37,755 nucleotides of DNA from Chloroflexota bacterium (lineage in GTDB: Bacteria > Chloroflexota > Limnocylindria > Limnocylindrales > CSP1-4). Below, one piece after another: positions 2,804 to 24,500 of the stretch. Position 1 is the stretch's first letter; each line of letters starts with the position of its first letter. The notes below the pieces were generated by a model that was not told where the DNA came from, did not search any database, and saw only the letters and a list, made by a program, of their open reading frames with translations. The translations under genes and the position numbers were made by a program. The stretch is taken from the NCBI GenBank assembly GCA_005880805.1, contig VBFZ01000038.1, forward strand, positions 1 to 37,755, given 5' to 3'.

Positions 2804-2884
2804 GCTCGTGCCCCGATCGGGCTCACCCGCCGCGGGGCCTGTCAAAGAGCTGCGGCCTCCTGAACGAGCGCTGAGATGCCGCCG

Positions 2885-2890
2885 AGTATA
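2885..2890 (-). promoter_or_regulatory. Putative -10 element (TATACT) for the glycosyltransferase gene
   Basis: AGTATA on the + strand in the GC-rich divergent intergenic region. No clear -35. Confidence 0.4.
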
Positions 2891-3020
2891 CCGTCGAGCC
2901 CCCGGCGACCCGCGTCTCCCGCTCGCTCGCGCCAGCCCCGCCCACCCTCCAGCCCGGCCTCCAGCGCGTCCCGGGCGGCTACGATAGGTCGCCCACAGCG
3001 GCACAGCGGAGGGCACCCGA

Positions 3021-4043: not shown

Positions 4044-4086
4044 AGGCGGGGCCCTCCCGGGCCACCCCTCGCGCGCAGGCCGGGAG

Positions 4087-4117
4087 TTGACGATGACCGT
4101 GTAATCGATTATCACAA
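4087..4117 (+). promoter_or_regulatory. Putative promoter (-35 TTGACG) with overlapping LacI/CcpA-type operator TGTAATCGATTATCA
   Basis: TTGACG at 4087-4092. Perfect palindrome TAATCGATTA at 4102-4111 within a TG..AANCGNTT..CA LacI-like pattern, upstream of the sugar ABC operon. Confidence 0.55.
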
Positions 4118-4345
4118 GCGCGGACAACGGTCCGACTGTGTTCTCGCTCGGGCGTTCGGCTGCCGAGAGATTAGGCGGCGCGTACGCCGCTCGACGATTG
4201 CAGGTGAGCCGACCGACCACACTCCTTTGCCGGAGGGAGTGGCCTCCGAACCTCCGCAGCTGGCGGCTCCTTCGCCATTTTTCGAGCGGTTGACGCGGCG
4301 ACTGGTCCTCCGTCCCCGGGTGTACGGGCGGAAAAGGAGGAGTGA

Positions 4346-5779: not shown

Positions 5780-5799
5780 CCGCCTAGGACCACGCAGAC

Positions 5800-5830
5800 G
5801 TCGAGGGGACCGGACATCGGTCCCCTCGAC
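5800..5830 (+). terminator. 13-bp perfect hairpin between SBP and permease genes (partial terminator or mRNA-stabilising stem)
   Basis: GTCGAGGGGACCG-GACAT-CGGTCCCCTCGAC. No strong U-tract. Confidence 0.7.
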
Positions 5831-5886
5831 AATCAATACGGAGTTATGACTTTCGGCTTTCGCGTCTCGTCGGGAGAAGGAGAGCG

Positions 5887-6843
5887 ATGACCGCAGCCGC
5901 CACGTCGGTGAAGCCTCGTAGCGTCGGACGCTTCAGGCTCGGGACCCTGGAGCGCCGGAACCTCAAATGGGGGCTGCTGTTCATCAGTCCCTGGGCCTTC
6001 GGGTTCATCGCCCTGGGGGTCTTTCCGATCCTGTACACCTTCTTCCTGAGCCTCACCCGGTATACGGGCTTCCGGAGTCCAACGCTCATCGGGTTCAACA
6101 ACTACACCACGATGTGGAACGACCCGGACTTCTGGAAGGCGGCCTACAACACCCTCTACTACACGGTACTGGCAGTGCCGATCGGCGTGGTCGTGGCGAT
6201 GCTCCTGGCGATCGCCATGAACCAGAAGGTGCGTGAAGTCGCGATCTACCGGGCGATCTTCTATCTGCCCTCGATCCTGCCGGTCTTCGCGATCTCCTTC
6301 GTCTTCGTCGTGTTGCTGAATCCCGGATATGGCCTCGTCAACCTGCTGCTGACGACCGCGGGACTGCCGTCGCCGAACTGGCTCGGCGACCCCGCATACA
6401 CCAAGCTGGCGCTGGTCATGATCGCGCAGCTGGGCGCCGGCCAATGGGCGCTGGTGTTCCTTGCCGGCCTGCGGGGCATCCCGATCGAGCTCTACGAGTC
6501 AGCCGAGATCGACGGCGCTGGCGCGTTTCGCAGGTTCCGGAGCATCACCCTGCCGCTGATGACGCCGGTGATCCTGTACGACATCATCATCGGCCTGTCG
6601 TTTGGCCTGCAGGTCTTCACATCGGCCTACATCCTGACCGGTGGCGCGACCCGCGGAGGTGCGGGCCCGGACAACTCCCTGCTGACGTACGTCTTTTACC
6701 TCTACCAGCAGGCGTTCCAGTTCGGTTCGATGGGCTACGCGGCCGCATTGTCGGTTGTCCTGTTCCTCGCGAGCGTGATCCTCGCCATGGCGGTTTTCCG
6801 CTGGGCGCGAGGCTGGGTCTTCTACGGCGGCGAGGAGGCCTGA
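5887..6843 (+). CDS. Carbohydrate ABC transporter permease
   Basis: LLFISPW..GF, NTLYYTV, YRAIFYLPSIL, EAA loop LYESAEIDGAGAFRRFRSITLPLM. Confidence 0.95.
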   Translation: MTAAATSVKPRSVGRFRLGTLERRNLKWGLLFISPWAFGFIALGVFPILYTFFLSLTRYTGFRSPTLIGFNNYTTMWNDPDFWKAAYNTLYYTVLAVPIGVVVAMLLAIAMNQKVREVAIYRAIFYLPSILPVFAISFVFVVLLNPGYGLVNLLLTTAGLPSPNWLGDPAYTKLALVMIAQLGAGQWALVFLAGLRGIPIELYESAEIDGAGAFRRFRSITLPLMTPVILYDIIIGLSFGLQVFTSAYILTGGATRGGAGPDNSLLTYVFYLYQQAFQFGSMGYAAALSVVLFLASVILAMAVFRWARGWVFYGGEEA

Positions 6844-6844
6844 G

Positions 6845-7762
6845 GTGGCAACCACGGAAGCCGCCCGCCCAATCGCGGTGGCAACCACCCCTCACCGGCG
6901 AACGAGATGGCGCCACGTCCTCACCGGGTCAGTCGTGCCCCGGGTCATCCTGATCGTCAGCTGCCTCGTCTTCCTGGCGCCGTTCTACTGGATGGTCGTG
7001 AGCGCGCTGAAGACGAACACTGAGCTGGCCCAATTCCCGCCCTCGCTGATTCCGGGCGCCTGGGCGTTCAACAACTTCCCCGACGCGATCAACTACATCC
7101 CGTTCGGGCTGTACACCTTCAACTCGCTCGTGATCACGGTCGGGGCGACGATCGGTGCGGTCCTGTCAAACACGTTGGTCGCGTACGGCTTCTCCAGGAT
7201 CCAGTGGCCCGGCCGAAATGCCCTCTTCTACCTCTGCGTTGCCACGATCTTCCTGCCGTACCCGGTGATCCTGGTGGCCCTGTTCGATATCTTCGGCAGG
7301 CTGCCGTCGTTCGGCATCCAGGGCGCAAAGTCCTGGGTGGACACGTTCCTGCCGCTGATCGTGCCGGCATTCTTCGGCAACCCCTTCTACATCTTCCTGA
7401 TGCGGCAGTTCATGCTCGGCATCCCCAAGGAGCTGTCCGACGCGGCCAAGGTCGACGGCGCAAGCGAGCTGCAGACGTTCTGGCGAGTCATCCTGCCATT
7501 GACGCGGCCCGCGGTCATCGTCGTTCTCATCCTCGCCGCGGTCGCGGCATGGAACGAGTTCCTCCTGCCGCTGCTCTACCTTCAGTCGAACGACAAGTAC
7601 CCGCTGGCGGTCGGATTGATCTTCTTCACGAGCGAGCACGACGTTTCGTACAACCTGCTGATGGCCGCGTCGACGCTCATCGTTCTGCCGGTCGTCATCA
7701 TCTTCCTGGTCGCGCAGCGCTTCTTCATCGAGGGGATCACGGTCGGCGGCGTCAAGGGCTGA
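6845..7762 (+). CDS. Carbohydrate ABC transporter permease
   Basis: FLAPFYWMVVSALK, NSLVIT, AYGFSR, IFLMRQF..IPKELSDAAKVDGAS, AWNEFLLPLL. GTG start 1 nt after the previous stop. Confidence 0.95.
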   Translation: MATTEAARPIAVATTPHRRTRWRHVLTGSVVPRVILIVSCLVFLAPFYWMVVSALKTNTELAQFPPSLIPGAWAFNNFPDAINYIPFGLYTFNSLVITVGATIGAVLSNTLVAYGFSRIQWPGRNALFYLCVATIFLPYPVILVALFDIFGRLPSFGIQGAKSWVDTFLPLIVPAFFGNPFYIFLMRQFMLGIPKELSDAAKVDGASELQTFWRVILPLTRPAVIVVLILAAVAAWNEFLLPLLYLQSNDKYPLAVGLIFFTSEHDVSYNLLMAASTLIVLPVVIIFLVAQRFFIEGITVGGVKG

Positions 7763-7770
7763 TCTCCCGC

Positions 7771-8553
7771 GTGCCCGTCGCCGATCCGGTCGTCGCCACG
7801 GTCGTCGTCGCCACCGTCGGGGGACGCGAGATCACGCTCGCGCGCCTCGAGGAGCGGATCGCCGATCTCCGCCGAGGACCACGCGGTCGGCACATGCCAC
7901 CAGACGACCGTGGTCCGAACCTGCGACGCTGGGTCGTCCAGGAGCTCGTCACCGAGGCGGTGATCGTCCACGAGGTCGAGGCGCTCGGGATCGGATCGGG
8001 TTCGGGCGAACCGTCGCGGGAGGGCGTGTCGCCGGCCGCCATCGCCCGGCTGGTCGAGCTGGTGACCGCGGAGGTCACCGTCCCGGACGAGGCGATGCGC
8101 GCCTACTACGGCCGCAACCCGGACCTCTACCAGCGGCCCGAGGCGCGCCGGATCCGTCACGTCGTTGCCCCCGACCGTGAAAGCGCGAAGGAAGCCGCCG
8201 GTCAGCTCGCGAGCGGCGCGCCGGCAGGCGTGGAGATCGAGGTCGAGCTCGGTCAGCTCGTCGGGCCCATGGAGGACATCTTGTTCGCCGCCGGGGCTGC
8301 CGCGGGCGCCGTCGTCGGACCGATGCTGGTCGACGGAGGCTGGAACGTCGCACGCATTGAAGGCACGATTCCGCCGTCCGTCGTACCGTACGACGTGGCT
8401 CGCCCATCGATCGAGGCTGAGCTGCTCATCGCAGCACGCAGGCGGGCGTTCGACGAGTGGCTGGAGCAGCGACGGCACGCTCTGGCCGTCATCGAGCCCG
8501 ACTTCGAGCATCCAGCCCACCCGATGCACGGGGTGCCAAGCCATCGGCACTGA
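7771..8553 (+). CDS. PpiC/SurA-like (parvulin-fold) protein with His-rich C-terminus, resembling M. tuberculosis Rv0649 ('FabD2') homologues
   Basis: The track ORF 7204..8553 is over-extended. A likely GTG start lies at 7771, after the permease stop. Motifs: VATVGGREIT, RRWVVQELVTE, MRAYYGRNPDLY..PEARRIRHVV, GPMLVDGGWNVARIE, ARRRAFDEWLE; ends EHPAHPMHGVPSHRH. Confidence 0.7.
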   Translation: MPVADPVVATVVVATVGGREITLARLEERIADLRRGPRGRHMPPDDRGPNLRRWVVQELVTEAVIVHEVEALGIGSGSGEPSREGVSPAAIARLVELVTAEVTVPDEAMRAYYGRNPDLYQRPEARRIRHVVAPDRESAKEAAGQLASGAPAGVEIEVELGQLVGPMEDILFAAGAAAGAVVGPMLVDGGWNVARIEGTIPPSVVPYDVARPSIEAELLIAARRRAFDEWLEQRRHALAVIEPDFEHPAHPMHGVPSHRH

Positions 8554-8619
8554 CCCACGTTGCGGCGTTCATCGGGCCGGTCGGCGAGCCGGCAAGGCAT
8601 TGACTGGAGGCGCGACTCG

Positions 8620-9549
8620 ATGAAACGAGTGGTCGTGACCGGCGGCAGCGGCAAGGCCGGCCGCGCGGTTGTTTCGGATCTCGTCGAGCACGGCTACGAC
8701 GTCGTCAACGTCGATGTCGTCCCCTCCCCGACGACCGTCGCGCCCTTCCTTCGAGCCGAGCTAACGGATCTCGGAGAGACGATCGAGGCGCTCCGCGGAG
8801 TTGAGACGGTCGTCCACCTCGCGGCAATTCCGGCGCCGCGCATCCGGACCGTCGAGCGGACGTTCGAGATCAACATGCTGAGCACGTACAACGTCTTCAG
8901 CGCCGCCGCGCTGCTCGGGCTGGAGCGCGTCGTATGGGCCTCGAGCGAGACCGTCCTGGGCCTGCCATTCAGCAGGACCTTCGCAGCGAGCCTGCTCGAC
9001 CCCGCTGCGACGCCCGGTCACCAGCCGCGCCCGGACTACGTTCCGATCGACGAGGAGCATCCCCTCCGACCGCACTCCAGCTACTCGCTTTCAAAGGTCC
9101 TCTCGGAGGAGATGGCCCGGCAGTTCGCCCGCTGGACCGGGATACCGTTCATCGGCCTGCGGTTCTCTGCGATCCGCGAGCCGGACGAGTACCGGCGCGC
9201 CGGTTTCGCCGATGCCGCCCGGAATCCCCACGCCGGCGAGTGGAACGTGTGGGGCTACGTCGACGCCCGCGATGTCGCACAGTCCTGCCGCCTGAGCCTG
9301 ACCGCCGATATCACGGGGGCGGACGTATTCATCATCGCTGCCGGCGACACGGCCAGCGAGCGTCCGAACGCGGAGCTCATGGCCGAGTGCTTCGCCGGTG
9401 TGCCGATCCGACCCGGAACGGGCGAGCACGACACGCTGCTGTCGGTCGCAAAGGCTCGCCGGGTGCTCGGGTATGCACCGGCGTACTCATGGCGCGAGCT
9501 CGCGGCCGTGGGCGCAGGGAGCAGTTCAGCCGATCGGGATGGCAGGTAG
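8620..9549 (+). CDS. NAD-dependent epimerase/dehydratase (extended SDR)
   Basis: VVVTGGSGKAG Rossmann motif, VVHLAAIP, WASSE, YSLSK (YxxxK), YVDARDVA. GGAGG SD before ATG 8620. Confidence 0.92.
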   Translation: MKRVVVTGGSGKAGRAVVSDLVEHGYDVVNVDVVPSPTTVAPFLRAELTDLGETIEALRGVETVVHLAAIPAPRIRTVERTFEINMLSTYNVFSAAALLGLERVVWASSETVLGLPFSRTFAASLLDPAATPGHQPRPDYVPIDEEHPLRPHSSYSLSKVLSEEMARQFARWTGIPFIGLRFSAIREPDEYRRAGFADAARNPHAGEWNVWGYVDARDVAQSCRLSLTADITGADVFIIAAGDTASERPNAELMAECFAGVPIRPGTGEHDTLLSVAKARRVLGYAPAYSWRELAAVGAGSSSADRDGR

Positions 9550-9553
9550 TCGA

Positions 9554-12500
9554 ATGGAAATTCTTGGCGCCGAGTCCACCAACCTCTTCATCGGCTCGGA
9601 GGCAGAGCCGCGTCAGCTGGTCCGCATTGCACTGCGCGGCGGCGCGGATGGTCGCGGCGAGACCGGACGCGTCTCGGTCCGTGGCAACGGGCTGCGACCC
9701 GACGAGCCCGTATCGATCGGGCCACTCGAGGCGGGCGCCGACGCGCGCCTGGAGATCGGCGTGGTGGTCGGGGGGGACGCGGCTCCCGGCGACACGATCT
9801 CCGCGGAGGTCGTAGTCGAGGGCGCGGGCGAGCCGGCCCGCCATCGGTTCGACCTCGTCGCCGCCGAGCCCGGCTGGCGCATGTTCATCTACACCGAGAC
9901 CTGGGGCAACGCGATCCAGTACCGCTCGCCATTCCAGCAACCGGGCCTCGCGCTCGTCAAGGCGCACCTCGAGACCGCGCGCCGGGACGCCGACTACAAG
10001 TTCGTGCTGGCGGAGCTCGATTACCTCAAGCCCTACTGGGATGCCTACCCGGAGGACCGCGGGTACATCCGCCAGCTGCTGGCCGACGGGCGCCTCGAGT
10101 TCATGGGCGGCACGTACAACGAGCCGAATACGAACCTGACCAGCGCCGAGTCGACGATCCGGAACGCGATCTACGGAGTCTCCTACCAGCGCGACGTGCT
10201 GGGCGGCGCGCCGGCGACGGCCTGGCAGCTCGACGCGTTCGGGCACGACCCGCAGTTCCCGGGAATCATGGCCGACGCCGGGATCACGGCCAGCTCCTGG
10301 GCACGCGGCCCGTTCCACGAGTGGGGCCCGCACTGGGTGCGCGGCCCGCAGCGGATGCCCGTGCCCGGCATGGCAGCCGGCGAGACGCCGCGTATGCAGT
10401 TCCCGACCGAGTTCGACTGGATGTCACCCAGCGGCCGCTCGCTGCTGACGTGCTTCCAGGCGGCTCACTACTCGGCCGGCTGGTGGATGGACACCGCGCC
10501 GACGCTCGAGGAGGCCGAGCAGCAGGTCCATCGCCTGTTCGACGAGCTGGCCGCCGATGCCGCGACCAGGAACGTGCTCCTGCCCGTCGGGTCGGACTAC
10601 ACGCCGCCGAACAAGTGGGTGACCGCCGTCGCCCGCGACTGGAACCGGCGTTACGTGTGGCCGAAGTTCGTGCCGGCCATCGCGCGCGACTTCTTCGACG
10701 CCGTCCGCGAGGAGCAGGCGCGCACCCGGCGGCCGTTCGTGGTGCAGACCCGCGACATGAACCCGATCTACGAGGGCAAGGACGTCTCGTTCATCGACAC
10801 GAAGCAGGCCCAGCGCGCCGCCGAGAACACCCTGCTGAGCGCTGAGAAGTTCGCGACGATCGCGAGCCTGCTCGGCGCGCGATTCCCCACCGAGGCCATC
10901 GACAAGGCCTGGCGGCAGCTGCTGTTCGGCGCGCATCACGACGGCATCACAGGCTCCGAATCGGACCAGGTCTACCTCGACCTCATCGGCGGCTGGCGTG
11001 AGTCGCTGGAGCTCGGCAAGGCCGCGCTCGACGGATCGCTCCGCTACCTCGGCGATCGGATCGACACGTCCGGCGAGGGGCGGGCCCTTACCGTGTTCAA
11101 TCCGCTGTCATGGCCGCGCAGCGACGTCGTCCGTGCGACAGTCGAGCTGCCGGCCGACTCGGGAACCGGCTTCCAGCTGCATGACCCGAACCGCGGCGTG
11201 GTCCCGTTCGTGATCGAGGCAGCCGAAGACGGCGGGGGAGCTGGAGGACCCGGCCGGGCGACGATCGCGTTCGTCGCGTCGGACGTTCCCGCGCTCGGAT
11301 ATCGCACCTTCCGTCTGATCGAGGGCGACGGTGGAGACGAGACCGCCGCCTGGCAGGCGGTCGAGGCGACACGGATCGAGAACGAGGCCTTCGCCGTGGA
11401 GGTCGACGCCGGGCGCGGGGGCGCCATCACGAGCCTCGTCGAGAAGCGCAGCGGCAAGGAGCTGATCCGGCCCGGAAAGGCGGCCAACGCGCTCGTTGCC
11501 TACCGTGAGTATCCCAACCACCCGCACTTCGGCGAGGGTCCCTGGCACCTCACGCCCGACGGCCGCTCCGCCTCGTCGGAGGCCACCCCAGCGACGGTCG
11601 TGGCAGAGGAGTCTGCGGTAGGACGCCGGATCGTGGTCGAGGCGCCGTTCGAGGGCGGCACGCGCCGGCAGGAGATCACGCTCTGGAACGGCGCGGAGCG
11701 GGTCGAGTTCCGGACCCGCATCGATGACTACGCCGGCCAGGACACGTTGTTCCGGGTCCGCTTCCCGCTCGCGGTGGAGGGCGGAAGGCCAATCTCCGAG
11801 ACGGGCAACGCGGTCGTCGGCCGCGGCTTCGGCTTCCCCGAGATCGACGTGGCCATGGTGCCGTTCACGCTCGATCACCCGGCTTACAACTGGTTCGGCG
11901 TCGGCAACACGGCCCGCGTCGACCTCCTCGACCGGGAGGACGGCGGACGCCCACCCCGCGCCTCGCGCGCGATCGGGATCGCGGAGGTGATCGGGCTTGG
12001 CATCCCCGAGCACGACGAGGCCGTGAGGGCGCTCGCTGTCGCACTGGTCCGGCAGGGCGTCACGTCAACCGTCTCGCGGCACGACGGCCACCGGTACGGA
12101 ATCCTCAACATCGACTCGAACCTGCCCGACGTCCGGATCGCCATCGGCCGCCCCGAGGAGAACCGGTTCGTGGCCGCCGCACTCGAGGCCGCGGGCAAGG
12201 GCTACCGGTCGGAGCTCGATCGGCAGCTGGGCGGCGCAGGCACGGCGCGGGTCTGGATCCCGGCGACGCGGCAGCAGCCCGGCGTCCCCGATACGTTCCC
12301 GGACCTGCGTGGTGCGCTCGACCTGCCGGTGCTCGTCGTCGCGGGTTCGGACCCCGAACACACCATCGAGGCGATCCAGACGCTGACGGCGGACCTCGAC
12401 GACTCCCGCATCCGCGTCGAACAGCCTTCCGAGCTCGACGGTTCGACTGGCCGACTCGAGGACTACACGGTCGCACTGCTCAACCGGGGGCTGCCTGGCT

Positions 12501-14020
12501 TCAACGTCGACGCCGAGGGAACGATGTTCCTGTCGCTGATGCGCGGCTGCAGCGGCTGGCCGTCGGGCGTATGGATCGACCCACCGCGGCGCTCGGTGCC
12601 CGACGGCTCGAACTTCCAGTTCCAGCACTGGACCCACACGTTCGAGTACGCGCTCGTCGCGGGCGCCGGCGACTGGCGCCAGGGCGAGGTCGTCCGCAAG
12701 GGCCACGATTTCAACAACGATCTGCCGGCTCGGGTTTTCGAGGCCCATTACGGATCGCTGGAAGCGACGAAGAGCCTCCTGTCGGTGGAGCCGTCCTCGG
12801 TCGTCCTGACGGCACTCAAGCCCGGCGGCAACCCGCTGGCGAAGATGGCCGACGCCGAGCTCGACCCAGCTCGGGGTATCGCCGCGCGACTCTACGAGTC
12901 CTCCGGACGACCGATGAAGGCGACGATTCGGTCGGCCTGGCCGCTGGAGGACGTCGCCCTCACGGACCTTCTCGAAGCCAACGCGCGGCCGGTCGCGGCC
13001 GGTTCCGGGTCGACTGCGGGCAGCTCCGGGACGGTAAGCGTCGACTTCGAGCCGTACCAGATCGCGACGATCGCGGGCCGTCTCGCCGCCCCCGAGGCCG
13101 GCGCCGGGTCCACGGAGCTGGCGCCCCGAGGAGAGCCGGCTCAGCCGCTCTTCTCGGATTACTGGATGCACAACAAGGGCCCCGCTCCGATGGGCTACCA
13201 GCCACTGGCCGTCCAGATCCGCCCGTGGCTGCTCGCGGCGACCGGCGACGGGGCGATCGGCATTCCGATCAGCGTGGCCTCGGAGCGAACGGATGCGCCG
13301 GTGTCAGGCTCGGTGACCCTCGAGGTGCCGTCCGGCTGGGATGTCAGCCCGGCAGAGCGAGCGTTCCGGCTTGCACCCGGGGCGCATCTCTCGTTCGAGG
13401 CCAGCATCACGCCCGGTCGGGGAACGCGCGCAGGTCGCTACTTCGTGGCGGCCCGCGTGACGGACGACGCGGGTCAGACGCACGAGGACGTGGTCACGAT
13501 CGACTACGGGCCGAGCCACGACGGCGACGGCCGGCGGACGGACGTGACACTGCGCTCGGCGACCCTGGCGCACGCCGTCGAGAAGGCAGTTCGCAACGCG
13601 GCCGGCGACGGCAACGGCGAAGCACCCGGGGAGGAGGCCGCAAGCCCCCAGGCGCTCGGCGGCGAGCTGACAGCCGAAGTCGTGGACCGCGGCCTCGCGA
13701 TCAATGCTGGCGAGCGGGCGCAGCTCCGTGTACGGCTGACCAATCACGCGGCCGCTGAGATCCGGGGCGAGGCCCAGCTCCTCAGCCCGCACGACATCTG
13801 GTCGATCGCCCGGCCCTGGACGCAGGGCTTCCGCGTCGCCCCGGGGGAGGACGCGGTCGTCACCTTCGAGGTCGACCCACCGTTCGACTTCGAGGGCGGC
13901 ACCTGGTGGGCGCTGGTCAAGGTGATGTATTTCGGGCGCCTGATCTATACGGAGTCCGTTCCGGTTGCGGTCAAGGCGACCCAGGCGGCGCGCGCGCTCA
14001 GCCTCGCGGCAGGGCGCTGA
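9554..14020 (+). CDS. GH38 alpha-mannosidase, Rv0648-like, with accessory Ig/NEW3-like domains; N-terminal Zn-binding motif absent
   Basis: KFVLAELDYLKPYWD, GGTYNEPNTNL, AWQLDAFGHDPQFPG (nucleophile Asp), LPVGSDYTPP, QLLFGAHHDGITGSE, VFNPLSWPR. Start at 9554 or 9539. The HxHxDxxW motif is not present (see findings). Confidence 0.9.
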   Translation: MEILGAESTNLFIGSEAEPRQLVRIALRGGADGRGETGRVSVRGNGLRPDEPVSIGPLEAGADARLEIGVVVGGDAAPGDTISAEVVVEGAGEPARHRFDLVAAEPGWRMFIYTETWGNAIQYRSPFQQPGLALVKAHLETARRDADYKFVLAELDYLKPYWDAYPEDRGYIRQLLADGRLEFMGGTYNEPNTNLTSAESTIRNAIYGVSYQRDVLGGAPATAWQLDAFGHDPQFPGIMADAGITASSWARGPFHEWGPHWVRGPQRMPVPGMAAGETPRMQFPTEFDWMSPSGRSLLTCFQAAHYSAGWWMDTAPTLEEAEQQVHRLFDELAADAATRNVLLPVGSDYTPPNKWVTAVARDWNRRYVWPKFVPAIARDFFDAVREEQARTRRPFVVQTRDMNPIYEGKDVSFIDTKQAQRAAENTLLSAEKFATIASLLGARFPTEAIDKAWRQLLFGAHHDGITGSESDQVYLDLIGGWRESLELGKAALDGSLRYLGDRIDTSGEGRALTVFNPLSWPRSDVVRATVELPADSGTGFQLHDPNRGVVPFVIEAAEDGGGAGGPGRATIAFVASDVPALGYRTFRLIEGDGGDETAAWQAVEATRIENEAFAVEVDAGRGGAITSLVEKRSGKELIRPGKAANALVAYREYPNHPHFGEGPWHLTPDGRSASSEATPATVVAEESAVGRRIVVEAPFEGGTRRQEITLWNGAERVEFRTRIDDYAGQDTLFRVRFPLAVEGGRPISETGNAVVGRGFGFPEIDVAMVPFTLDHPAYNWFGVGNTARVDLLDREDGGRPPRASRAIGIAEVIGLGIPEHDEAVRALAVALVRQGVTSTVSRHDGHRYGILNIDSNLPDVRIAIGRPEENRFVAAALEAAGKGYRSELDRQLGGAGTARVWIPATRQQPGVPDTFPDLRGALDLPVLVVAGSDPEHTIEAIQTLTADLDDSRIRVEQPSELDGSTGRLEDYTVALLNRGLPGFNVDAEGTMFLSLMRGCSGWPSGVWIDPPRRSVPDGSNFQFQHWTHTFEYALVAGAGDWRQGEVVRKGHDFNNDLPARVFEAHYGSLEATKSLLSVEPSSVVLTALKPGGNPLAKMADAELDPARGIAARLYESSGRPMKATIRSAWPLEDVALTDLLEANARPVAAGSGSTAGSSGTVSVDFEPYQIATIAGRLAAPEAGAGSTELAPRGEPAQPLFSDYWMHNKGPAPMGYQPLAVQIRPWLLAATGDGAIGIPISVASERTDAPVSGSVTLEVPSGWDVSPAERAFRLAPGAHLSFEASITPGRGTRAGRYFVAARVTDDAGQTHEDVVTIDYGPSHDGDGRRTDVTLRSATLAHAVEKAVRNAAGDGNGEAPGEEAASPQALGGELTAEVVDRGLAINAGERAQLRVRLTNHAAAEIRGEAQLLSPHDIWSIARPWTQGFRVAPGEDAVVTFEVDPPFDFEGGTWWALVKVMYFGRLIYTESVPVAVKATQAARALSLAAGR

Positions 14021-14042
14021 TCGCGCCAGAAACGGAGATGGC

Positions 14043-15017
14043 ATGACGGTTGCATCGAGGACCGAAACCACGTCCGAGCTGAAGATGGGCGTGCTGCCCT
14101 GGGGCCAGTACACCGACTGGCCATCGCTGCAGCGCGCGGGGCAACGCGCGGACGAGCTCGGCTATGACTCACTCTGGACATGGGATCACCTGTATCCCAT
14201 CCAGGGCGACTGGCGGGGACCGATCTTCGAGGGCTACCTGACGCTGACGGGCTGGGCGGGCGTGACCAATCACGTCACGGTGGGGCTCATGGTCGGCGCC
14301 AACACGTTCCGGAATCCCGCGCTCACCACGAAGATGGTGACCACCCTCGACCACATCAGCGGCGGCCGGGCCATCCTCGGAATCGGCGGCGCCTGGTTCG
14401 GGCGCGAGCACGAGGCGTACGGGATCGAGTTCGGCTCAGGGTTCGGCGAGCGGCTCGACTGGCTCGACGAAGCGGTCGACCTCATGCGCCAGATGCTGCA
14501 CCAGGAGGAAGGCACCGCCCGCGGGGTCTACTACCACGCCAAGCGGGTGCGGAACAATCCACCGCCCCTGCAGGACCATCTGCCAATCCTCATTGGCGGC
14601 GACGGGGAGAAGAAGACCCTCCACACCGTCGCAAAGTTCGCCGACGCCTGGAACACGGGAGGCAGCGTCGAGTTCGTGCGGCACAAGGACGAGGTCCTTC
14701 GGCGCTGGTGTCAGGAGGTCGGCCGCGACGAAGCGGAGATCGAGCGGACGCTGGGGCTGGGCCTGGTTCTCCTCCGGGACGATCCCGCGGAGGCGCGACG
14801 GGTCGAGGCCGCCATCCGGAAGCACCATCCCGGCTACGACGAGGACGGCCGCGTCGGAACGCCTGAGCAGATCGCCGAATCGCTCGTCCCGTACGTCAAG
14901 CTCGGCTTCCGGCACATCTTCTTCGACCTGCCGGCGCCCTTCGACCAGGAGACCCTCGAGCGCTTCGTCGGAGAGGTGAAGCCGATGCTCGCGGAGAAGG
15001 CGCTCGCAGCTCGCTGA
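14043..15017 (+). CDS. LLM-class (luciferase-like) flavin/F420-dependent oxidoreductase
   Basis: GYDSLWTWDHL, FEGYLTL, FRNPAL..KMVTTLDHISGGRAILGIGGAW, PILIGGDGEKKTL, VGTPEQIAE. GGAG SD before ATG 14043. Confidence 0.9.
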   Translation: MTVASRTETTSELKMGVLPWGQYTDWPSLQRAGQRADELGYDSLWTWDHLYPIQGDWRGPIFEGYLTLTGWAGVTNHVTVGLMVGANTFRNPALTTKMVTTLDHISGGRAILGIGGAWFGREHEAYGIEFGSGFGERLDWLDEAVDLMRQMLHQEEGTARGVYYHAKRVRNNPPPLQDHLPILIGGDGEKKTLHTVAKFADAWNTGGSVEFVRHKDEVLRRWCQEVGRDEAEIERTLGLGLVLLRDDPAEARRVEAAIRKHHPGYDEDGRVGTPEQIAESLVPYVKLGFRHIFFDLPAPFDQETLERFVGEVKPMLAEKALAAR

Positions 15018-15092
15018 CATCCCGACCTGACTCCGCGCTCCGGGCGGGCTGCGCGCTGATCGCCCCGGCGCGTCTTCGGTAACGTTCGCGCG

Positions 15093-15890
15093 ATGGACGA
15101 GCGCAGCCCCGACGCGAGCGTGACCAGCGCGCGTGTGCCCCGCCTGTCCTACTTCTTCCCGGCCCACAACGAAGAGGCCAACGTCGAGGCGCTCGTGCAC
15201 GAGGCGCTCGAGACGCTACCGCGCCTGGCGGGGCAGTTCGAGGTGATCGTCGTCGACGACGGCTCGCGTGATGCAACCGGCGAGATCGCCGAGCGCCTGG
15301 CGGCCGCGAACCCGCAAGTCGTCCGTGTCGTGCATCACGCCACGAACCTGGGCTACGGGGAAGCCCTCCGCTCCGGGCTGCGCGCCTCACGTTTCGAGCT
15401 CGTGGGCTTCACCGATGGTGACCGCCAGTTCCGGGTCCTCGATCTGGGACGGCTCGTCGGGCGCCTTCTCGAGCCCGATCGCCCGGATGCCGTCGTCGGC
15501 TACCGGCTGAAGCGAGCCGATCCGCCGATCAGGACCCTGTACGCGCGCGCCTACCGGCTGGCGAACCTCGTCTTCTTCCGGCTGACCGTCCGCGACGTGG
15601 ACTGTGCATGCAAGCTGTTCAGGCGTGAGGCGCTCGAAGGGGTGCGCGTGGAGTCGGGCGGTGCCTTTTTCTCGGCCGAGCTGCTGATCAAGCTGCGGGC
15701 TCGCGGTGCGCGCATCGCGGAGGTCGGCGTGCCGCACCATCCGCGCACGGCGGGATCTCCGAGCGGTGCGAGGCCCGCGGTCGTGCTGCGGGCTGTGAAG
15801 GACTTCTGGTCGCTGCGCTTGCGCCTCTGGGCGGCGCGGGCGAGCGCGTTGCGGCGCGGGCTGCCGATCCTCTCGGAGGACGCCGGCTAG
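15093..15890 (+). CDS. GT2 family glycosyltransferase (polyprenol-phosphate-mannose synthase / DPM1-like)
   Basis: FPAHNEE, VIVVDDGSRDAT, NLGYGEALRSG, FTDGD (DxD), DVDCACKLFRRE, ELLIK. No TM segments. Confidence 0.9.
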   Translation: MDERSPDASVTSARVPRLSYFFPAHNEEANVEALVHEALETLPRLAGQFEVIVVDDGSRDATGEIAERLAAANPQVVRVVHHATNLGYGEALRSGLRASRFELVGFTDGDRQFRVLDLGRLVGRLLEPDRPDAVVGYRLKRADPPIRTLYARAYRLANLVFFRLTVRDVDCACKLFRREALEGVRVESGGAFFSAELLIKLRARGARIAEVGVPHHPRTAGSPSGARPAVVLRAVKDFWSLRLRLWAARASALRRGLPILSEDAG

Positions 15891-15927: not shown

Positions 15928-16539
15928 TTACTCGGGCGTCGGCCCCTCGCGCTTCTCGCCCTCCTGGTCGACGCCCAGCGAGTTGACGAACTCGCGAAAG
16001 ACATCCAGCCGTGGGTCGTGGAGCCGGCTCTTGCCGGGGCGGCCCTCGCGCTCCTCGGGCGGGGGCCCGGAGCGGGTCCCGGCCTCTCCCTCCTCGAGGG
16101 CGGTTCCTTCGTCTTCCTCCTCGCCGCTTTCGGGCGACACCCCCGACCGATCCAGGACCTCCTCGGCCGCGAAGATCTCCGCGCCGGTGCGAACCGCCAG
16201 GGCAACCGCGTCGGACGGCCGCGAGTCGATCTCGACGGGCCGCCCGCCGGCATCCAGCAGGAGCCGGGCACGGAAGGTTTCATCCGCGAGGTCGGCGATC
16301 ACGACGCGACGCACGGTAACGCCGAGCTCCTCGAGCGTCGCCGCGAACAGGTCGTGCGTCAGGGGACGCTCAGGTGCCAGGCCCTGCAGCTTCATGGCGA
16401 TCGCGTTCGCCTCCCAGGGCCCGATCCAGATCGGCAGGTAGCGCTCGCGGTCGCTCTCCTTGAGGATCACGACGTGCTGGCTGTTGAGCATGTGCACCCG
16501 CACGCTCTCGACGACCATCTCGACGAGCCGATCGGACAT
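15928..16539 (-). CDS. Bifunctional nuclease family protein (DUF151/BFN)
   Basis: VVILKE..RYLPIWIGPWEANAIA, RPLTHDL, IDSRPSDAVALAVR, acidic tail. Confidence 0.93.
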   Translation of the reverse strand: MSDRLVEMVVESVRVHMLNSQHVVILKESDRERYLPIWIGPWEANAIAMKLQGLAPERPLTHDLFAATLEELGVTVRRVVIADLADETFRARLLLDAGGRPVEIDSRPSDAVALAVRTGAEIFAAEEVLDRSGVSPESGEEEDEGTALEEGEAGTRSGPPPEEREGRPGKSRLHDPRLDVFREFVNSLGVDQEGEKREGPTPE

Positions 16540-16546
16540 GAGGGAA

Positions 16547-17266
16547 TTATCCCACGCCGAACTGGGGGCGCCGCCGGAACCGGAAGACGCCCCGGATCAG
16601 CAGCCCGACCGCCAGCCCGAGCACGAAGCCGCCGATGTGGGCGAAGAACGCCACCCCGCTCGCGTCGGACGCTGCCGCGCCCAGGCTCGTAAAGCCATCG
16701 ATGATCTGGAGGACGAACCAGAAGCCGAGCACGATCAGCGCCGGCACGGGAATGAGCTGGTAGAAGAAGCCGAGGAAGACAAGCGACAGGATGCGCGCGC
16801 CGGGATACAGCACGACGTAAGCGCCGAGGGTCGCGGCAATGGCGCCCGAGGCCCCGATCAGAGGCTGCCCCGAGTTCGGCTCGATCGCCACCTGGGCAAG
16901 GGCTGCGGCGTACCCGCCGGCCAGGTAGAACAGGAGAAAGGCGGGCCGTCCGAGGCGGTCCTCGATGTTGTTGCCGAAGATCCACAGGTAGAGCATGTTG
17001 CCGAGCAGGTGCAGCACGCCACCGTGCAGGAACATGCTGGTGACGACCGAGGCAACGGGCGGCGAGAGCAGGTTGCGCTGCGCCAGCACCGCCGACAGAT
17101 CCCGTGGCACGACGCCGTAGTTGTTGAGGAAAGCTTCAAGCGCACGGTCGCCCGAGCTCGCCTGCAGGTAGAGCTCATAGGCGAAAATCGCGAAGCAGGC
17201 CAGGATCAGCGCGATCGTGACGTACGGCGTCCGCCGCGTCGGGTTGGCATCCCGCAAGGGGATCAC
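16547..17266 (-). CDS. Rhomboid family intramembrane serine protease
   Basis: MIPLRDANP, TSMFLHGGVLHLLGNM, IEDRLG, GASG (catalytic Ser), AHIGGF (catalytic His). Confidence 0.95.
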   Translation of the reverse strand: MIPLRDANPTRRTPYVTIALILACFAIFAYELYLQASSGDRALEAFLNNYGVVPRDLSAVLAQRNLLSPPVASVVTSMFLHGGVLHLLGNMLYLWIFGNNIEDRLGRPAFLLFYLAGGYAAALAQVAIEPNSGQPLIGASGAIAATLGAYVVLYPGARILSLVFLGFFYQLIPVPALIVLGFWFVLQIIDGFTSLGAAASDASGVAFFAHIGGFVLGLAVGLLIRGVFRFRRRPQFGVG

Positions 17267-19533
17267 GGTCTGGGAGTCGCCTTGGGCTTCCTGCTCGGGC
17301 TGGCGGACGGGCTCGCGCGAGACGGTGATGGGCTCGCGGACGGGCCTTCGGGCACTGCCTGGAGGACCGATACGCCGACACGATTGGCGTCGATCCAGAC
17401 GATCGAGGGTGGCGCTCCGCCCGTCCCTGCAACGTAGTAGATGCCGCGCAGGTCCTTCCAGCCCGGATCGCCGTTCGCCAGACGGTATTGCTCGACGAAG
17501 TCGCCGGTCGGGCCGGGCTCCTCCATGGCGACGATCCGGGCGGAGTTGACGTCGTACAGGTAGAGCGTGCCCGAGGCAGGGTCGCCGGTACCTGTCAGGA
17601 GGGTGTACCGGGGCGCCGGGCGCACGGCGTCGTCGCCGGGCCCGTCGATCTTGCGCGATCCGGGCGCAGCGATCCGCCAGTCCGAGGTCGGCACGACGCG
17701 CCTGACGGCGCCGCCCTGCGCCAGGAAGATGTTTGAGTCGATGTACATGGCCGTGACGTCATCGACCTTCTGGTTGGTCGGCAGCCGCCGTGTGGGAAGC
17801 GCGGGATAGCCGCTGCCGTCGATCGCGGGCGCGTACGTCAACACCTGCTCCTCGGACGGGTCGACGACGTACAGGTTGTAGAGGCCGGCCTGCGGGTCGC
17901 GGATGAACGTGCCGATCGCGCGCACGTCGGTGCCCCAGCTCGACGAGTTCCGGACCCGGACGCTGCGCAGCGTCCCGCGACCGTGCGTGTCGGCGGGCCG
18001 CCAGCGCCACAGCGTGTTCTTGCTGTCCAGGATCAGCAGATCGCGTCCCCCGGTCGCCAGCAGCCTTGGTTCCGCGGCGCCCGACTGGCCGGCCTTCAGC
18101 ACGGTGGTTGCCTTCTTTGCGGCAAGGTCGATCCTGAGCACCGACTTCGACGTCTTGTCGAGTACATACGGCGCGCCGTCGGGTCCGCGGACGAGCGCGC
18201 GCAGATCCACGGGGGTCTTTGCGCCCGCGAAGGTGAACAGGATCTGGCTGCCGACGGGCTTGACCTTGTAGAGGCTGTCAAGACCGGCAAGCACCTGCTG
18301 ACGCAGCGGCGCGAGGACGCTCTCGCCGGCGCCCGACGCGCCCGCGGTCCTGAGCTGCTGGTAGGCGTCGGCCAGCAGCCGCGTCGCGGCGTCGGGGTCC
18401 GCATCGATGATGTTTACCCCGGGCCCGAACACGCGGTTGATGTCATCCTGCGCGGCGGCAAGCGCGCGCTGGGCAGCCGTCAGCGAGTCCAGGCGGCCGA
18501 TCGGCGCCGGCGGTGCCCACAGCGACACGCCCAGCCCCAGGGTGGCCGCCAGAAGCAGGAACACCAGCAGCGCGATGGCCGCTCGCCGCTGCGACTCACG
18601 ACGGGCAGACAACGGCGTCACCCGATGTCGCGCAGGCGACCGCCGGGGCAGGAGGTCCTGGAGCCTGCGGATCCCGCCCTCGAACGCGTTGCCCGCCTTG
18701 CTGCGGGCGGCGCGGGCAGAGTCGCGCGCCGCGGCAACGCCGTCGGTCACGCTGTCCGCCAGCGGGATCGGTGAGCGATCGGGCGCGCCCGCCAGCGGTT
18801 CGGGTGGTCGGACGGGCACCAGCGTGCGCTGCTTCGTCGTGACCGCGACCTCGGTTGCCTCGAGCGCGATGGCCCCGTCGCTTCCGGAGCCGTCCGTGGC
18901 CACGAACTGGTGGTGGAGATGGTCGATCGCCGACTGGGGGTGGAGCGTGACCATCGCGTCTTTCAGCTCGTCGGGCCCCAGGCGCCCCATCATGTTCGGC
19001 GAGACGAGGACGAGCGAGTCTCCGACCGCGAGCTCGCCGCGCCAGACATCCGGCTCCAGGTCGCCGGTCGGGAGGCCGCGATCGCGGTGGGGGTCGGGCA
19101 GCGTCGAGAGGCGCGCGCCCCGGATCAGGTAGGCCTCCGCAGGCCCAACGGTCGCTACGTAGAGCTCGTTGGCGCGGACGACGGCCACGGCCACGCCGAT
19201 GGGCCCGGATCCTTCCTGGCTGCCTCCAGAGGGCAGTCGATCCCCGACGTGGGCGAGCCGCTTGTTGGCGAGCCGGATGGCCTTCTCGAGGCAGACCCGG
19301 ATCCCGGCCGACTCGTCGTAGTAGTACTCGCTGCGGATCGTGTCCGCCGCAAGCCGCGTCGCCTCGCGCACGCGGCCGCCTGGCACCCGGCCGGTGACCA
19401 GGAGGTAGAGGTTGCCCTTGGAACGCGCAACCGAGCCCACGTTCGGCTCGACGACGACGAGGGTGTCCGGGGAGTCATCGACGCGGTCCGCGTCCGGGAC
19501 CACGCCGAGCTTCATCTGGAGCCGAACGGCCAT
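17263..19533 (-). CDS. Membrane protein: degenerate PP2C-like N-terminal domain, single TM, extracytoplasmic beta-propeller-like domain, Pro/Ser tail
   Basis: PP2C-fold spacing (LYLLVTG, YYYDES, LEKAIRLANKRL, VAVAVVRANELYVATVG..EAYLIRG, GDSLVLVS). TM AAIALLVFLLLAATLGLGVSLW. Propeller-like repeats (GAPYVLDK, LLILDS, NLYVVDP, LYLYDVNSARIV). Confidence 0.8.
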   Translation of the reverse strand: MAVRLQMKLGVVPDADRVDDSPDTLVVVEPNVGSVARSKGNLYLLVTGRVPGGRVREATRLAADTIRSEYYYDESAGIRVCLEKAIRLANKRLAHVGDRLPSGGSQEGSGPIGVAVAVVRANELYVATVGPAEAYLIRGARLSTLPDPHRDRGLPTGDLEPDVWRGELAVGDSLVLVSPNMMGRLGPDELKDAMVTLHPQSAIDHLHHQFVATDGSGSDGAIALEATEVAVTTKQRTLVPVRPPEPLAGAPDRSPIPLADSVTDGVAAARDSARAARSKAGNAFEGGIRRLQDLLPRRSPARHRVTPLSARRESQRRAAIALLVFLLLAATLGLGVSLWAPPAPIGRLDSLTAAQRALAAAQDDINRVFGPGVNIIDADPDAATRLLADAYQQLRTAGASGAGESVLAPLRQQVLAGLDSLYKVKPVGSQILFTFAGAKTPVDLRALVRGPDGAPYVLDKTSKSVLRIDLAAKKATTVLKAGQSGAAEPRLLATGGRDLLILDSKNTLWRWRPADTHGRGTLRSVRVRNSSSWGTDVRAIGTFIRDPQAGLYNLYVVDPSEEQVLTYAPAIDGSGYPALPTRRLPTNQKVDDVTAMYIDSNIFLAQGGAVRRVVPTSDWRIAAPGSRKIDGPGDDAVRPAPRYTLLTGTGDPASGTLYLYDVNSARIVAMEEPGPTGDFVEQYRLANGDPGWKDLRGIYYVAGTGGAPPSIVWIDANRVGVSVLQAVPEGPSASPSPSRASPSASPSRKPKATPRP

Positions 19534-19639
19534 GCGGGCCTCTCGTGATCGGGCGGGCGAAAGGATGAGGCACGACCCGGCAGGCTGCGCCGCCGCAGAC
19601 CGTCGACGCTCACCCGAGGGCGGCTGGCAGGTGCGCGCG

Positions 19640-19645
19640 ATTATA
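19640..19645 (-). promoter_or_regulatory. Consensus -10 (TATAAT) upstream of the PP2C-like gene
   Basis: ATTATA on the + strand just past the DUF721 stop, about 107 nt upstream of ATG 19533, in very GC-rich surroundings. Confidence 0.6.
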
Positions 19646-19650
19646 CGCGG

Positions 19651-19968
19651 CTAAGGTGCCCGAACCCGTACCGCCAGCTCGCTCGCCGGGAGCCCGCCCG
19701 GCGCCGCCCGGAAGGCAGCGAGCAGCTCCGTCGTCCGCATGCGCAGCTCCTGGGCGACGATCGGCGAATCCGCGTCGACGAGCAGCACGCCGCGCTCGAG
19801 GCGCTGCAGGCGAGTCGCACCAGTGGCGGCCGGCACATGTTCGGCGACGATGGCAGCCCAGGTACCTGCGGCCCGCACGAGGCGAAGCTCGTCCTCCAGG
19901 CCCAGGCGCCGTGCGGTCTCGGGCAGCAGGTCGCCGATCCGCTCCATCGGTCGGCGGCGGGTGGTCAC
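19651..19968 (-). CDS. DUF721 / DciA-family protein (helicase-loading partner)
   Basis: Overlaps the recF stop. RIGDLLPE..LGLEDEL..W..IVAEH..A...L.V.ADSP..AQELRM pattern. This is the canonical position after recF. Confidence 0.8.
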   Translation of the reverse strand: MTTRRRPMERIGDLLPETARRLGLEDELRLVRAAGTWAAIVAEHVPAATGATRLQRLERGVLLVDADSPIVAQELRMRTTELLAAFRAAPGGLPASELAVRVRAP

Positions 19969-22789: not shown

Positions 22790-24178
22790 TCAGTCTGCGT
22801 AGATGAGCTCGCGAACCGCCGCGATCTCCCGCCGCAGCTCGTCGTTCTGGGACGCCTCGCGGGTGATCTTGTCGCAGGCGTGCAGCACGGTCGAGTGGTC
22901 GCGTCCGCCGAGCTCCGCCCCGATCCGCAGCAGGGAGACGTCGGTCTCCTCGCGCATCAGGAACATCGCGATCTGCCGCGGCACGACGATGGCCTTGTCG
23001 CGCTTCTGGCCCTGCAGGGCGTCCATCGGCACGCCGTAATAGTCGGAGACGGCCTTGGCGATCCGCTCCGGCGTCACCTGGCGCTTCTTCGGGTTGTACA
23101 TGACGTTCGAGAGGACGGACTGGGCCAGGTCGATCGAGATCGGGATCGCGCCCATGCTCGCGTACGCGACGATGCGGTTCAGCGCCCCCTCGAGCTCGCG
23201 GATGTTGCTGACGACCTTGCGGGCGATGAACTCGACCACGTCGGACGTGATCGGAACGCCGCCTTCCTCGGCCTTCGCACGCAGGATCGCGATCCGGGTC
23301 TCGAGATCGGGCGCCGTCAGGTCGGCTATCAGCCCCCACTCGAACCGGCTTCGCAGGCGCTCCTCCAGGGTGACGATCTGCTTGGGCGGCCGATCGGACG
23401 AAAGGACGATCTGCTTGCCGTCCTCGTGGATCGCATTGAACGTATGGAAGAACTCTTCCTGCGTGCGCTCCTTGTCGGCGATGAACTGGATGTCGTCGAT
23501 GAGCAGGAGGTCGATCCGCCGATAGCGGCTCCGGAACTCGTCGACCTTGCCCTGCTGGATGCTCGTGATGAACTCGTTCGTGAACTTCTCGCTGGTCGCG
23601 TAGACGACCTTCTTGCGCGGGAACTTGGTCACGACCTGGTTGCCGATCGCGTGCATGAGGTGGGTCTTGCCCAGTCCCACCCCGCCGTACAGGAAGAGCG
23701 GGTTGTAGGCGTGTCCCGGCCGCTCCGCGACCGACAGGCTCGCCGCATGTGCCAGGCGATTGGCCGAACCGACGATGAAGTTGGCGAACGTGTAGCGGGC
23801 GTTGAGATTCGCGCTGACACCCTCGCCGCCAACACGTCCGGGCTCGAGCCGAACGACCTGGCTCGAGGGGCCGCTTCCATTCGTCGACGGGGCCATGCTG
23901 TTCGAGCCAAACTGGACCGTCTCCGAGGCGGGTAGCGGGGCAGTGACGAACTCGACCTGCACGCTGTAGCCGACGACGCGGGCCAGGGTCTGGCTGATCA
24001 GGGATCGGTAGCGGGTCTCCAGCCAGTCCTTCGCGAACCCGTTCGGGACGGAAATCCGGAAGTGGCTGTCGTCAACGTCAACCAGCTGGGTGTCGCGCAG
24101 CCACGTCTCGAAGTTCGCGGCCGAGAGCGAAACCTGCAACTCTCCGAGCGCCGCACGCCAGACTTGTTTGGCATCCAT
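22790..24178 (-). CDS. dnaA: Chromosomal replication initiator DnaA
   Basis: True start MDAKQVW at 24178. YNPLFLYGGVGLGKTHL, LLIDDIQF, QEEFFHTFN, RLRSRFEWGL, GGRDHSTVLHA. Confidence 0.99.
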   Translation of the reverse strand: MDAKQVWRAALGELQVSLSAANFETWLRDTQLVDVDDSHFRISVPNGFAKDWLETRYRSLISQTLARVVGYSVQVEFVTAPLPASETVQFGSNSMAPSTNGSGPSSQVVRLEPGRVGGEGVSANLNARYTFANFIVGSANRLAHAASLSVAERPGHAYNPLFLYGGVGLGKTHLMHAIGNQVVTKFPRKKVVYATSEKFTNEFITSIQQGKVDEFRSRYRRIDLLLIDDIQFIADKERTQEEFFHTFNAIHEDGKQIVLSSDRPPKQIVTLEERLRSRFEWGLIADLTAPDLETRIAILRAKAEEGGVPITSDVVEFIARKVVSNIRELEGALNRIVAYASMGAIPISIDLAQSVLSNVMYNPKKRQVTPERIAKAVSDYYGVPMDALQGQKRDKAIVVPRQIAMFLMREETDVSLLRIGAELGGRDHSTVLHACDKITREASQNDELRREIAAVRELIYAD

Positions 24179-24500
24179 CGATCGCTGACCCGACTGGTGG
24201 TTGTTGCGAGGTGGGTAGCCTCGGCCACGGACCGACGCATGGGAACTTGGGCGCGATGGGATGACGGAGGGCCTCGCGAACGCTCCGACAAGCTGTTCCA
24301 GGCGACCCTTCGTGTGAGCCGAAGGGGAGCCCCCGAGCAGCGTCCCGGCGCCCGCGGGAGGCGAAGGATAGCACCGCCCGGCAGGGGCCTGCAAGGCGAT
24401 CCCGCGGGTGCCACCGCATACTCCCCGGGAGTATCAGGCATCCCCTCGACCGCGAGTGCCCGCACTCCGAATTCCCGGCCGACACAACCCATGGTGTGGT

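Follow-up and report, generated by a model that had tools for sequence, protein, structure and literature searches.

A core membrane protein of Limnocylindria with a PP2C fold and lost catalytic residues: a probable receptor-like adaptor or sensor

What is a protein phosphatase fold for, once it has lost the residues that would make it an enzyme and sits at the membrane behind an external β-propeller? The question is raised by a 37,755-nt stretch of DNA (the ‘window’) from a Chloroflexota bacterium of the Limnocylindria (contig VBFZ01000038.1), a class of Chloroflexota that is abundant in soil and fresh water and still uncultured. Here the gene at 17263..19533 on the reverse strand (the ‘target’; the parts described below lie on the same strand) encodes a protein of 756 amino acids, which we describe as a putative type II membrane pseudo-PP2C receptor. 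An earlier, sequence-only reading had seen in it a PP2C fold without most of its catalytic aspartates, joined through one transmembrane (TM) helix to an external propeller, and had further proposed that the rhomboid protease encoded next door releases a phosphopeptide-binding or decoy domain. The analysis presented here points to the target being probably a non-catalytic transmembrane adaptor or sensor with the general plan of the phosphatase PstP, and leaves release by the rhomboid unlikely.

The N-terminal, cytoplasmic domain (residues 1-230; 18844..19533) carries this argument. In an AlphaFold2 model of the target, made with 39 homologues as input (mean pLDDT 76), it is predicted at a pLDDT of ~80-90, with a strand and helix order of bbb-aa-bbbbbb-aa-b. 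Its best Foldseek matches in the PDB are all bacterial PP2Cs (E = 4e-11 to 1e-8, probability 1.00), at target-normalised TM scores (TMt) of 0.6-0.76; these include tPphA (2j86), PstP (1txo/2cm1), MsPP (2jfr), Stp1 (5f1m), SaSTP (2pk0), PppA and SpoIIE. Comparison of the family N-domain with 12 genuine PP2Cs of the same class by hhalign gives a probability of 98.7% (E = 2e-15). The alpha-beta-beta-alpha PP2C fold proposed earlier for residues 1-230 is thus confirmed by both fold search and profile comparison.

Searches with sequence see much less. No Pfam family matches the target, with the threshold relaxed to E <= 1; the NCBIfam model Stp1_PP2C scores 16.3 bits over residues 58-145, against a cut-off of 230; two target orthologues reach just 18-20 bits with PF13672, whose cut-off is 24; and neither a phmmer search of PDB sequences nor a search of the PDB with the family profile found a PP2C. 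The kinship is shown by fold search and profile-profile comparison alone, and sequence-only methods barely detect it.

The catalytic site tells a different story from the fold. The strings taken earlier as degenerate PP2C motifs are found at residues 42-49 (LYLLVTGR), 127-135 (ATVGPAEAY) and 174-181 (LVLVSPNM), and hhalign pairs four motifs with substituted counterparts: motif 1, RxxNED, with VVVEPNV-G, which puts a Val at the position of the phosphate-binding Arg; motif 2, ADGVGG, with VTGRVPG, so that the DGxGG Asp bridging metals M1 and M2 is replaced (there is no Asp at all in residues 41-56); motif 5, GDSRAY, with GPAEAY; and motif 8, CSDGL, with VSPNM. That most catalytic Asp residues are gone while the fold persists therefore stands, with a possible survivor in motif 11, where D219 of GSGSDG matches by gapless position (hhalign is offset by 2 residues) and the Asn of the motif is Gly/Ser. 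We also considered whether S21-P22-D23 might be a retained ‘NED’ of motif 1, and rejected this, as hhalign pairs D23 with the Asp of an upstream ‘TDxG’, and ‘NED’ with ‘NV-’.

A class-wide alignment, comprising families f1, f3, f4 and f5 together with five distant members, extends these observations beyond the window. The old catalytic positions are variable throughout: residue 47 is T/E/Q/A, 131 is P/G/A/E/T/D, 179 is P/G/R/A and 219 is D/A/S/G; as they vary in this way, the old active site is no longer under selection. The same alignment contains residues that are universal, namely G10, P30, R37, K39, G40, Y70-Y71-Y72-D73, A76 and G77, along with E123, G130, W164, G171, P199 and A202. Two motifs stand out among these: R37-x-K39-G40, which sits before the strand ending at motif 2, and Y70-Y-Y-D73-x-S-A-G77, which forms the loop joining helices 1 and 2. 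Both would be expected at the pole of the β-sandwich opposite the old catalytic cleft.

Could the target nonetheless be an atypical but active phosphatase, using non-canonical ligands (D23, E29, D73/E74, D219 or the H198/H205/H207/H208 cluster, for instance), and so supply the Ser/Thr phosphatase that most Limnocylindria otherwise lack? The distribution of kinases and phosphatases gives this idea its appeal. In an even sample of the class, comprising 81 Limnocylindria genomes and 31 genera, Hanks-type Ser/Thr kinases are present in 81/81, with a canonical PP2C (PF13672) in just 29/81: all those of f3, 7/26 of f1, and 1/30 of f4 (a borderline match of 24.7 bits). The window’s own genome encodes four Hanks kinases and has no match to either PF13672 or PF07228. 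D219, moreover, is invariant in f1 and gaplessly aligned there to the motif 11 Asp. In P0237, P0239, P0139 and a single member of f3, however, this residue has become Ala, Ser or Gly; no former metal-ligand position is conserved, several being Pro or Gly; the phosphate-binding Arg of motif 1 has given way to Val; and the premise of a ‘missing’ phosphatase is itself unproven, the survey having been restricted to PP2C families. Family f3 keeps a real PP2C as well as the target, and we regard an active enzyme as highly improbable.

The f3 genomes also bear on a related idea, that the target replaced a canonical PP2C that had been lost. This we rejected: f3 carries both, from which it follows that the pseudo-PP2C is not a stand-in for the real one, and in no lineage are the catalytic positions conserved. 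The genuine f3 PP2C is paired with a PASTA kinase ~9 kb from the target, past GT2 and GT87/PMT genes. At one such locus (L104, 14789-17631) the PP2C and a PknB-like PASTA kinase come after GT2 and a GT87/PMT fusion and are followed by OpcA and G6PD, and this origin-proximal kinase/phosphatase pair recalls the arrangement in Actinobacteria.

The target itself is found in every one of the 81 sampled genomes and 31/31 genera, with one match in 79/81, and is thus a core gene of the Limnocylindria. Homologues form more than 1632 clusters at 90% identity, nearly all unnamed or ‘hypothetical’ proteins of Chloroflexota or Candidatus Limnocylindrales; an exhaustive profile search with a limit of E <= 1e-3 retrieves 3439 proteins; relatives are encoded in at least 565 species genomes; and the named distant members of the family are all from Chloroflexota.

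Beyond the N-domain the protein continues as a predicted disordered linker (residues 231-306; 18616..18843; pLDDT <50), which contains the motif EPLAGAPDRSPIPLAD and a basic juxtamembrane stretch. The motif occupies residues 245-260, and its general form is EPLAGxPD(R/Q)SP(I/V)PLAD; it is invariant in f1 and retained in f4 and P0159, and is not found in f3 or f5. The single TM helix, AIALLVFLLLAATLGLGVSLW, spans residues 318-340 (18514..18582), where AlphaFold2 models a helix of residues 307-339, and contains an almost invariant pair, L332 and G333, in its outer half. Seven Arg/His residues on its N-side flank (residues 300-317), a neutral C-side flank and the absence of a signal peptide from the target sequence together indicate, by the positive-inside rule, a single-pass protein of N-in/C-out (type II) topology.

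On the outer side, the model places three helices (346-369, 380-399 and 404-421; pLDDT ~85-92) that would form an extracytoplasmic ‘stalk’ (residues 346-421; 18271..18498), then a six-bladed β-propeller of 22 strands (residues 424-726; 17356..18264), and finally a disordered tail rich in Ser, Pro and Ala (residues 727-756; 17266..17355; pLDDT ~37). The single TM helix and external propeller expected from the sequence are accordingly both present in the model. For the C-terminal half, Foldseek matches Pizza6 designs (7ov7, 6f0t, 7zqg and 7zcj; TMt 0.68-0.73) and Drp35, and neither NHL nor any other Pfam repeat is found in the propeller at E <= 1. Conservation across the family is much higher in the cytoplasmic part than in the ectodomain, and the tail varies in both sequence and length, with none in f4. 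In-frame TAG codons in many f4 genomes, which we at first took as candidate internal stops, proved to be the true stops of these shorter proteins, overrun by the alignment.

The propeller is shared with other membrane proteins, encoded on other Chloroflexota contigs and found by profile search at E-values down to 1e-104. P0173 carries a target-type propeller (E = 7e-104) behind an N-terminal HxxxCxxC, a TM helix and a TolB-like region, the HxxxCxxC giving a weak match, below the Pfam threshold, to zf-HC2 (anti-sigma); P0183 has the propeller in two tandem copies; and in P0215 and P0256 it is combined with Kelch repeats, with LysM as well in P0215. This spread fits a mobile, reusable extracytoplasmic binding module, as yet without a Pfam model.

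How might these parts work together? We infer that the propeller has a ligand, either external or derived from the envelope, since the same module occurs on the membrane protein with the weak zf-HC2 match and on the LysM-bearing Kelch protein, and that a signal would then pass inward by way of the one TM helix and the basic juxtamembrane/linker region, which is strongly conserved. At the inner face, the pseudo-PP2C would bind a partner instead of dephosphorylating one, most likely through a surface comprising R37-x-K39-G40 and YYYDxSAG; the partner could be one of the Hanks-type Ser/Thr kinases, a substrate of theirs, or the probably co-transcribed BFN protein described below. Signalling by binding rather than by catalysis is probable because the catalytic residues have been lost.

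Of the systems already known, PstP (Rv0018c) of Mycobacterium tuberculosis offers the closest overall plan: a cytoplasmic PP2C domain of ~230 aa at the N-terminus is joined by a long juxtamembrane linker to one TM helix and a C-terminal ectodomain, and the gene lies near the replication origin, with the PstP structures 1txo and 2cm1 among the best Foldseek matches (E ~1e-10, TMt ~0.7). The target differs in having the catalytic Asp/Arg residues of motifs 1, 2, 5 and 8 replaced and no Pfam PP2C match, in its ectodomain of helical stalk plus six-bladed propeller, and in lying outside any fhaA-fhaB-rodA-pbpA-pknA-pknB cluster, among dciA, rhomboid, BFN and GT2 genes instead.

The propeller side is reminiscent of the PknD sensor (NHL), likewise a bitopic signalling protein whose ectodomain is a six-bladed propeller; the Pizza designs, of which Pizza6 is the best propeller match, were derived from that very sensor. 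Unlike PknD, the target has no detectable NHL repeat, a dead phosphatase fold rather than a kinase on the inside, and a three-helix stalk ahead of the propeller.

A degenerate metal site on a PP2C fold is, for its part, a feature shared with TAB1 (5nzz, which is also among the Foldseek matches), PHLPP2 and the C-terminal domain of RssB. These are soluble, cytoplasmic proteins, unlike the target, which is an integral membrane protein of receptor-like build, confined to one bacterial class and with RxKG and YYYDxSAG motifs of its own. To our knowledge, binding-type pseudoenzymes are well known in eukaryotes and barely described in bacteria, and we know of no receptor-type PP2C pseudophosphatase characterised so far. 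PHLPP2 (PMC12002173) and the RssB C-terminal domain (PMC6546054) are described as PP2C-fold pseudophosphatases that are proposed to be, or act as, adaptors; as such adaptors are known, the target is best thought of as a membrane receptor form of existing kinds.

The family shows, in a clear natural case, how a catalytic cleft is given up and a new conserved surface arises on the same fold, with R37, K39 and Y70-D73 as concrete residues for mutation. The target is also a core gene of its class that has no Pfam model, occupies a fixed spot by the replication genes, and is served by its own conserved promoter and leader.

Several considerations nevertheless weigh against an adaptor or sensor of this kind. 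Loss of activity is judged here from residues, and PP2C relatives can surprise; the opposite-pole placement of the universal motifs follows general PP2C topology rather than model coordinates; and the conserved linker motif was docked nowhere by AlphaFold2 (pLDDT <50). Both the ligand and the partner are putative, as is the binding role itself, and the shared gene order within this one class may reflect common descent and not function. Lastly, in family f2, whose members have reduced genomes of 1.1-1.4 Mb (L109, L113 and L101), the protein is ~833 aa long and conserves the ectodomain, while the N-domain has decayed further, to the point of lacking RxKG and YYYD and matching the family N-domain with an hhalign probability of 77%; as these motifs are lost and the ectodomain is kept, the outside part may be the essential one in f2.

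A different account is that the target is chiefly an envelope protein, whose propeller and stalk serve in structure or assembly at the cell surface (possibly O-mannosylated through the GT2, TMEM260-like and PMT neighbours) and whose decayed PP2C is no more than a cytoplasmic anchor or plug. The f2 pattern would agree with this, as would the Ser/Pro-rich tail, the adjoining conserved and convergent block of GT2, TMEM260_N and PMT/GT87 genes, and the company of propeller and LysM in P0215. Yet the cytoplasmic domain is the best-conserved part of the protein in f1, f3, f4 and f5, with invariant surface motifs and a conserved linker motif that are unexpected for a passive anchor, and f4 is without the Ser/Pro tail; we hold a mainly structural role to be distinctly unlikely.

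Turning from the protein to its surroundings, the gene order is dnaA (22790-24394), dnaN, recF, dciA, target, rhomboid and BFN/DUF151, then a convergent GT2 gene. DciA (DUF721; 19651..19968, reverse strand; PF05258, E = 1.5e-12) closes the dnaA-dnaN-recF-dciA block. The rhomboid protease gene (16547..17266, reverse strand; 239 aa; PF01694, E = 6.5e-34) begins with a GTG that shares 4 nt (GTGA) with the TGA stop of the target, as the sequence-only reading had it, and has its catalytic motifs intact (the Ser of GASGA, the His of AHIGG, and H..H...N). The BFN/DUF151 gene (15928..16539, reverse strand; 203 aa; PF02577, E = 3.3e-41) starts 7 nt past the rhomboid stop.

How constant is this arrangement? 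Among 80 related species loci surveyed, with counts taken over 72, dciA lies upstream in 72/72, BFN downstream in 72/72, and the rhomboid directly between target and BFN in 68/72. In two divergent families, f3 (2/2) and f5 (1/1), the rhomboid is found at this position too, although there the target is only ~30-38% identical, and is not adjacent in f2 (3/3), f4 (5/5), P0147, P0271, the f1 genera g5 and g6, or 4/72 of the close loci; overall it separates target and BFN in about half of the sampled lineages. BFN is downstream in 14/15 distant loci (f1 g6, f2-f5, P0147 and P0271), with no BFN match in the f1 g5 locus L114.

The three-gene cluster is thus conserved in nearly all the close f1 loci, in f3 and in f5, and elsewhere lacks the rhomboid. 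Because the slot is shared with f3 and f5, having target and rhomboid together is probably the ancestral state, from which the rhomboid was repeatedly lost or moved; the same observation led us to reject its late insertion in a single sub-lineage. Independence of the target from rhomboids altogether could not be shown, as all 16 of the 16 genomes checked keep at least one somewhere.

In what sense, then, might the rhomboid act on the target? The target resembles known rhomboid substrates (TatA/AarA, Spitz and HybA/GlpG) in being a single-pass protein that adjoins, and is probably co-transcribed with, an intact rhomboid. Regulated proteolysis would have this rhomboid cut the TM helix or outer juxtamembrane region, so that the propeller is shed or the receptor removed and partner binding by the pseudo-PP2C is switched; consistent with this are the overlapping start and stop codons, the intact Ser/His dyad, the adjacency in close loci and in f3 and f5, the near-invariant L-G pair in the outer half of the helix, and the retention of a rhomboid elsewhere in genomes that lack an adjacent copy.

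The geometry argues otherwise. Rhomboids cut close to the outer leaflet, and after such a cut it is the propeller that would come away, with the PP2C-like domain still tethered to the membrane rather than free in the cytoplasm. They also preferentially cleave N-out helices of types I and III (PMC7232013), the reverse of the N-in, type II orientation predicted for the target. The adjacent rhomboid has, in addition, been lost from whole families and from the further loci listed above without visible change in the TM helix, and since the entire dnaN-to-GT2 region is syntenic across the class, adjacency weighs little. Topology, geometry and lost linkage together weaken the idea, and we consider rhomboid-dependent regulation unlikely; the more specific claim, release of a phosphopeptide-binding domain, finds no support in that form. 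Were the link functional after all, the target would be an unusual type II rhomboid client.

The label of ‘nuclease’ attached earlier to the downstream gene needs similar care. A DUF151 gene is certainly there, but for Cor, its homologue in mycobacteria, no nuclease activity could be detected (PMC3870250), which leaves the enzymatic label unproven. The C-terminal tail of the BFN/DUF151 protein is acidic and probably disordered (EEEDEGTALEEGEAG...).

One could go further and combine all three genes into an ancestral, origin-proximal module, in which the propeller would sense how the envelope is faring, the rhomboid would either work on a type II helix, against convention, or be under the control of the receptor, and the pseudo-PP2C, through RxKG/YYYD and the SPIPLAD linker motif, would govern either BFN or a pathway of Hanks kinases. 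This is a long shot, and we rate it very unlikely as a whole; if true, it would be the founding case in which intramembrane proteolysis is coupled to a bacterial pseudophosphatase of the receptor type.

Convergent to the target operon, and seen class-wide, lies a candidate O-mannosylation block (window positions 2-15890, and loci L001-L003, L101 and L102), made up of a DPM1-like GT2, a TMEM260_N-like GT-C and PMT/GT87 fusions. The extracytoplasmic Ser/Pro-rich tail of the target would be a plausible substrate for it. As for a role in defence, PADLOC returned no match for target, rhomboid or BFN, and we rejected the idea on this ground and because the target is a single-copy core gene near oriC.

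The target also has a promoter of its own. The consensus -10 noted earlier from the sequence is a perfect hexamer, TATAAT (19640..19645, reverse strand), which stands directly past the dciA stop, 112 nt ahead of the start codon. It is perfect in 58/70 related species loci and one base off in most of the others (TATACT, TATCAT or TATGAT); in the 2.75-Mb, ~70% GC genome of the window the hexamer occurs 4 times on both strands, against ~60 expected from base composition. No -35 to go with it was picked up by a simple sigma-70 scan.

Between hexamer and gene is a conserved leader (19534..19639, reverse strand), which comprises ACCTGCCAGCC at 19622-19632, ~7 nt past the -10, followed by variable GC-rich hairpins, the ribosome-binding region GATCACGAGAGGCCCGC and the ATG. 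A structured RNA leader or riboswitch was considered and rejected: the leader has no Rfam match at E <= 1, RNAalifold finds neither compensatory pairs nor a covariation-supported fold, and the conservation is at the level of primary sequence. For want of an Rfam match and of covariation, the element may instead be an operator or belong to the initially transcribed region, and the motif ACCUGCCAGCC is a candidate transcription start for the target gene. ACCTGCCAGCC is near-invariant, and the combination of -10 and CCTGCC motif recurs in 61 related species loci while being unique within the window’s genome.

A minor point concerns some public ORF calls for this family, P0270 and P0220 from the representative search, which were left out of account; they are frameshifted translations with long, Arg/Pro/Ser-rich nonsense stretches, and are likely to be errors of assembly or ORF calling; the translation of P0270 continues into the N-terminus of the rhomboid.

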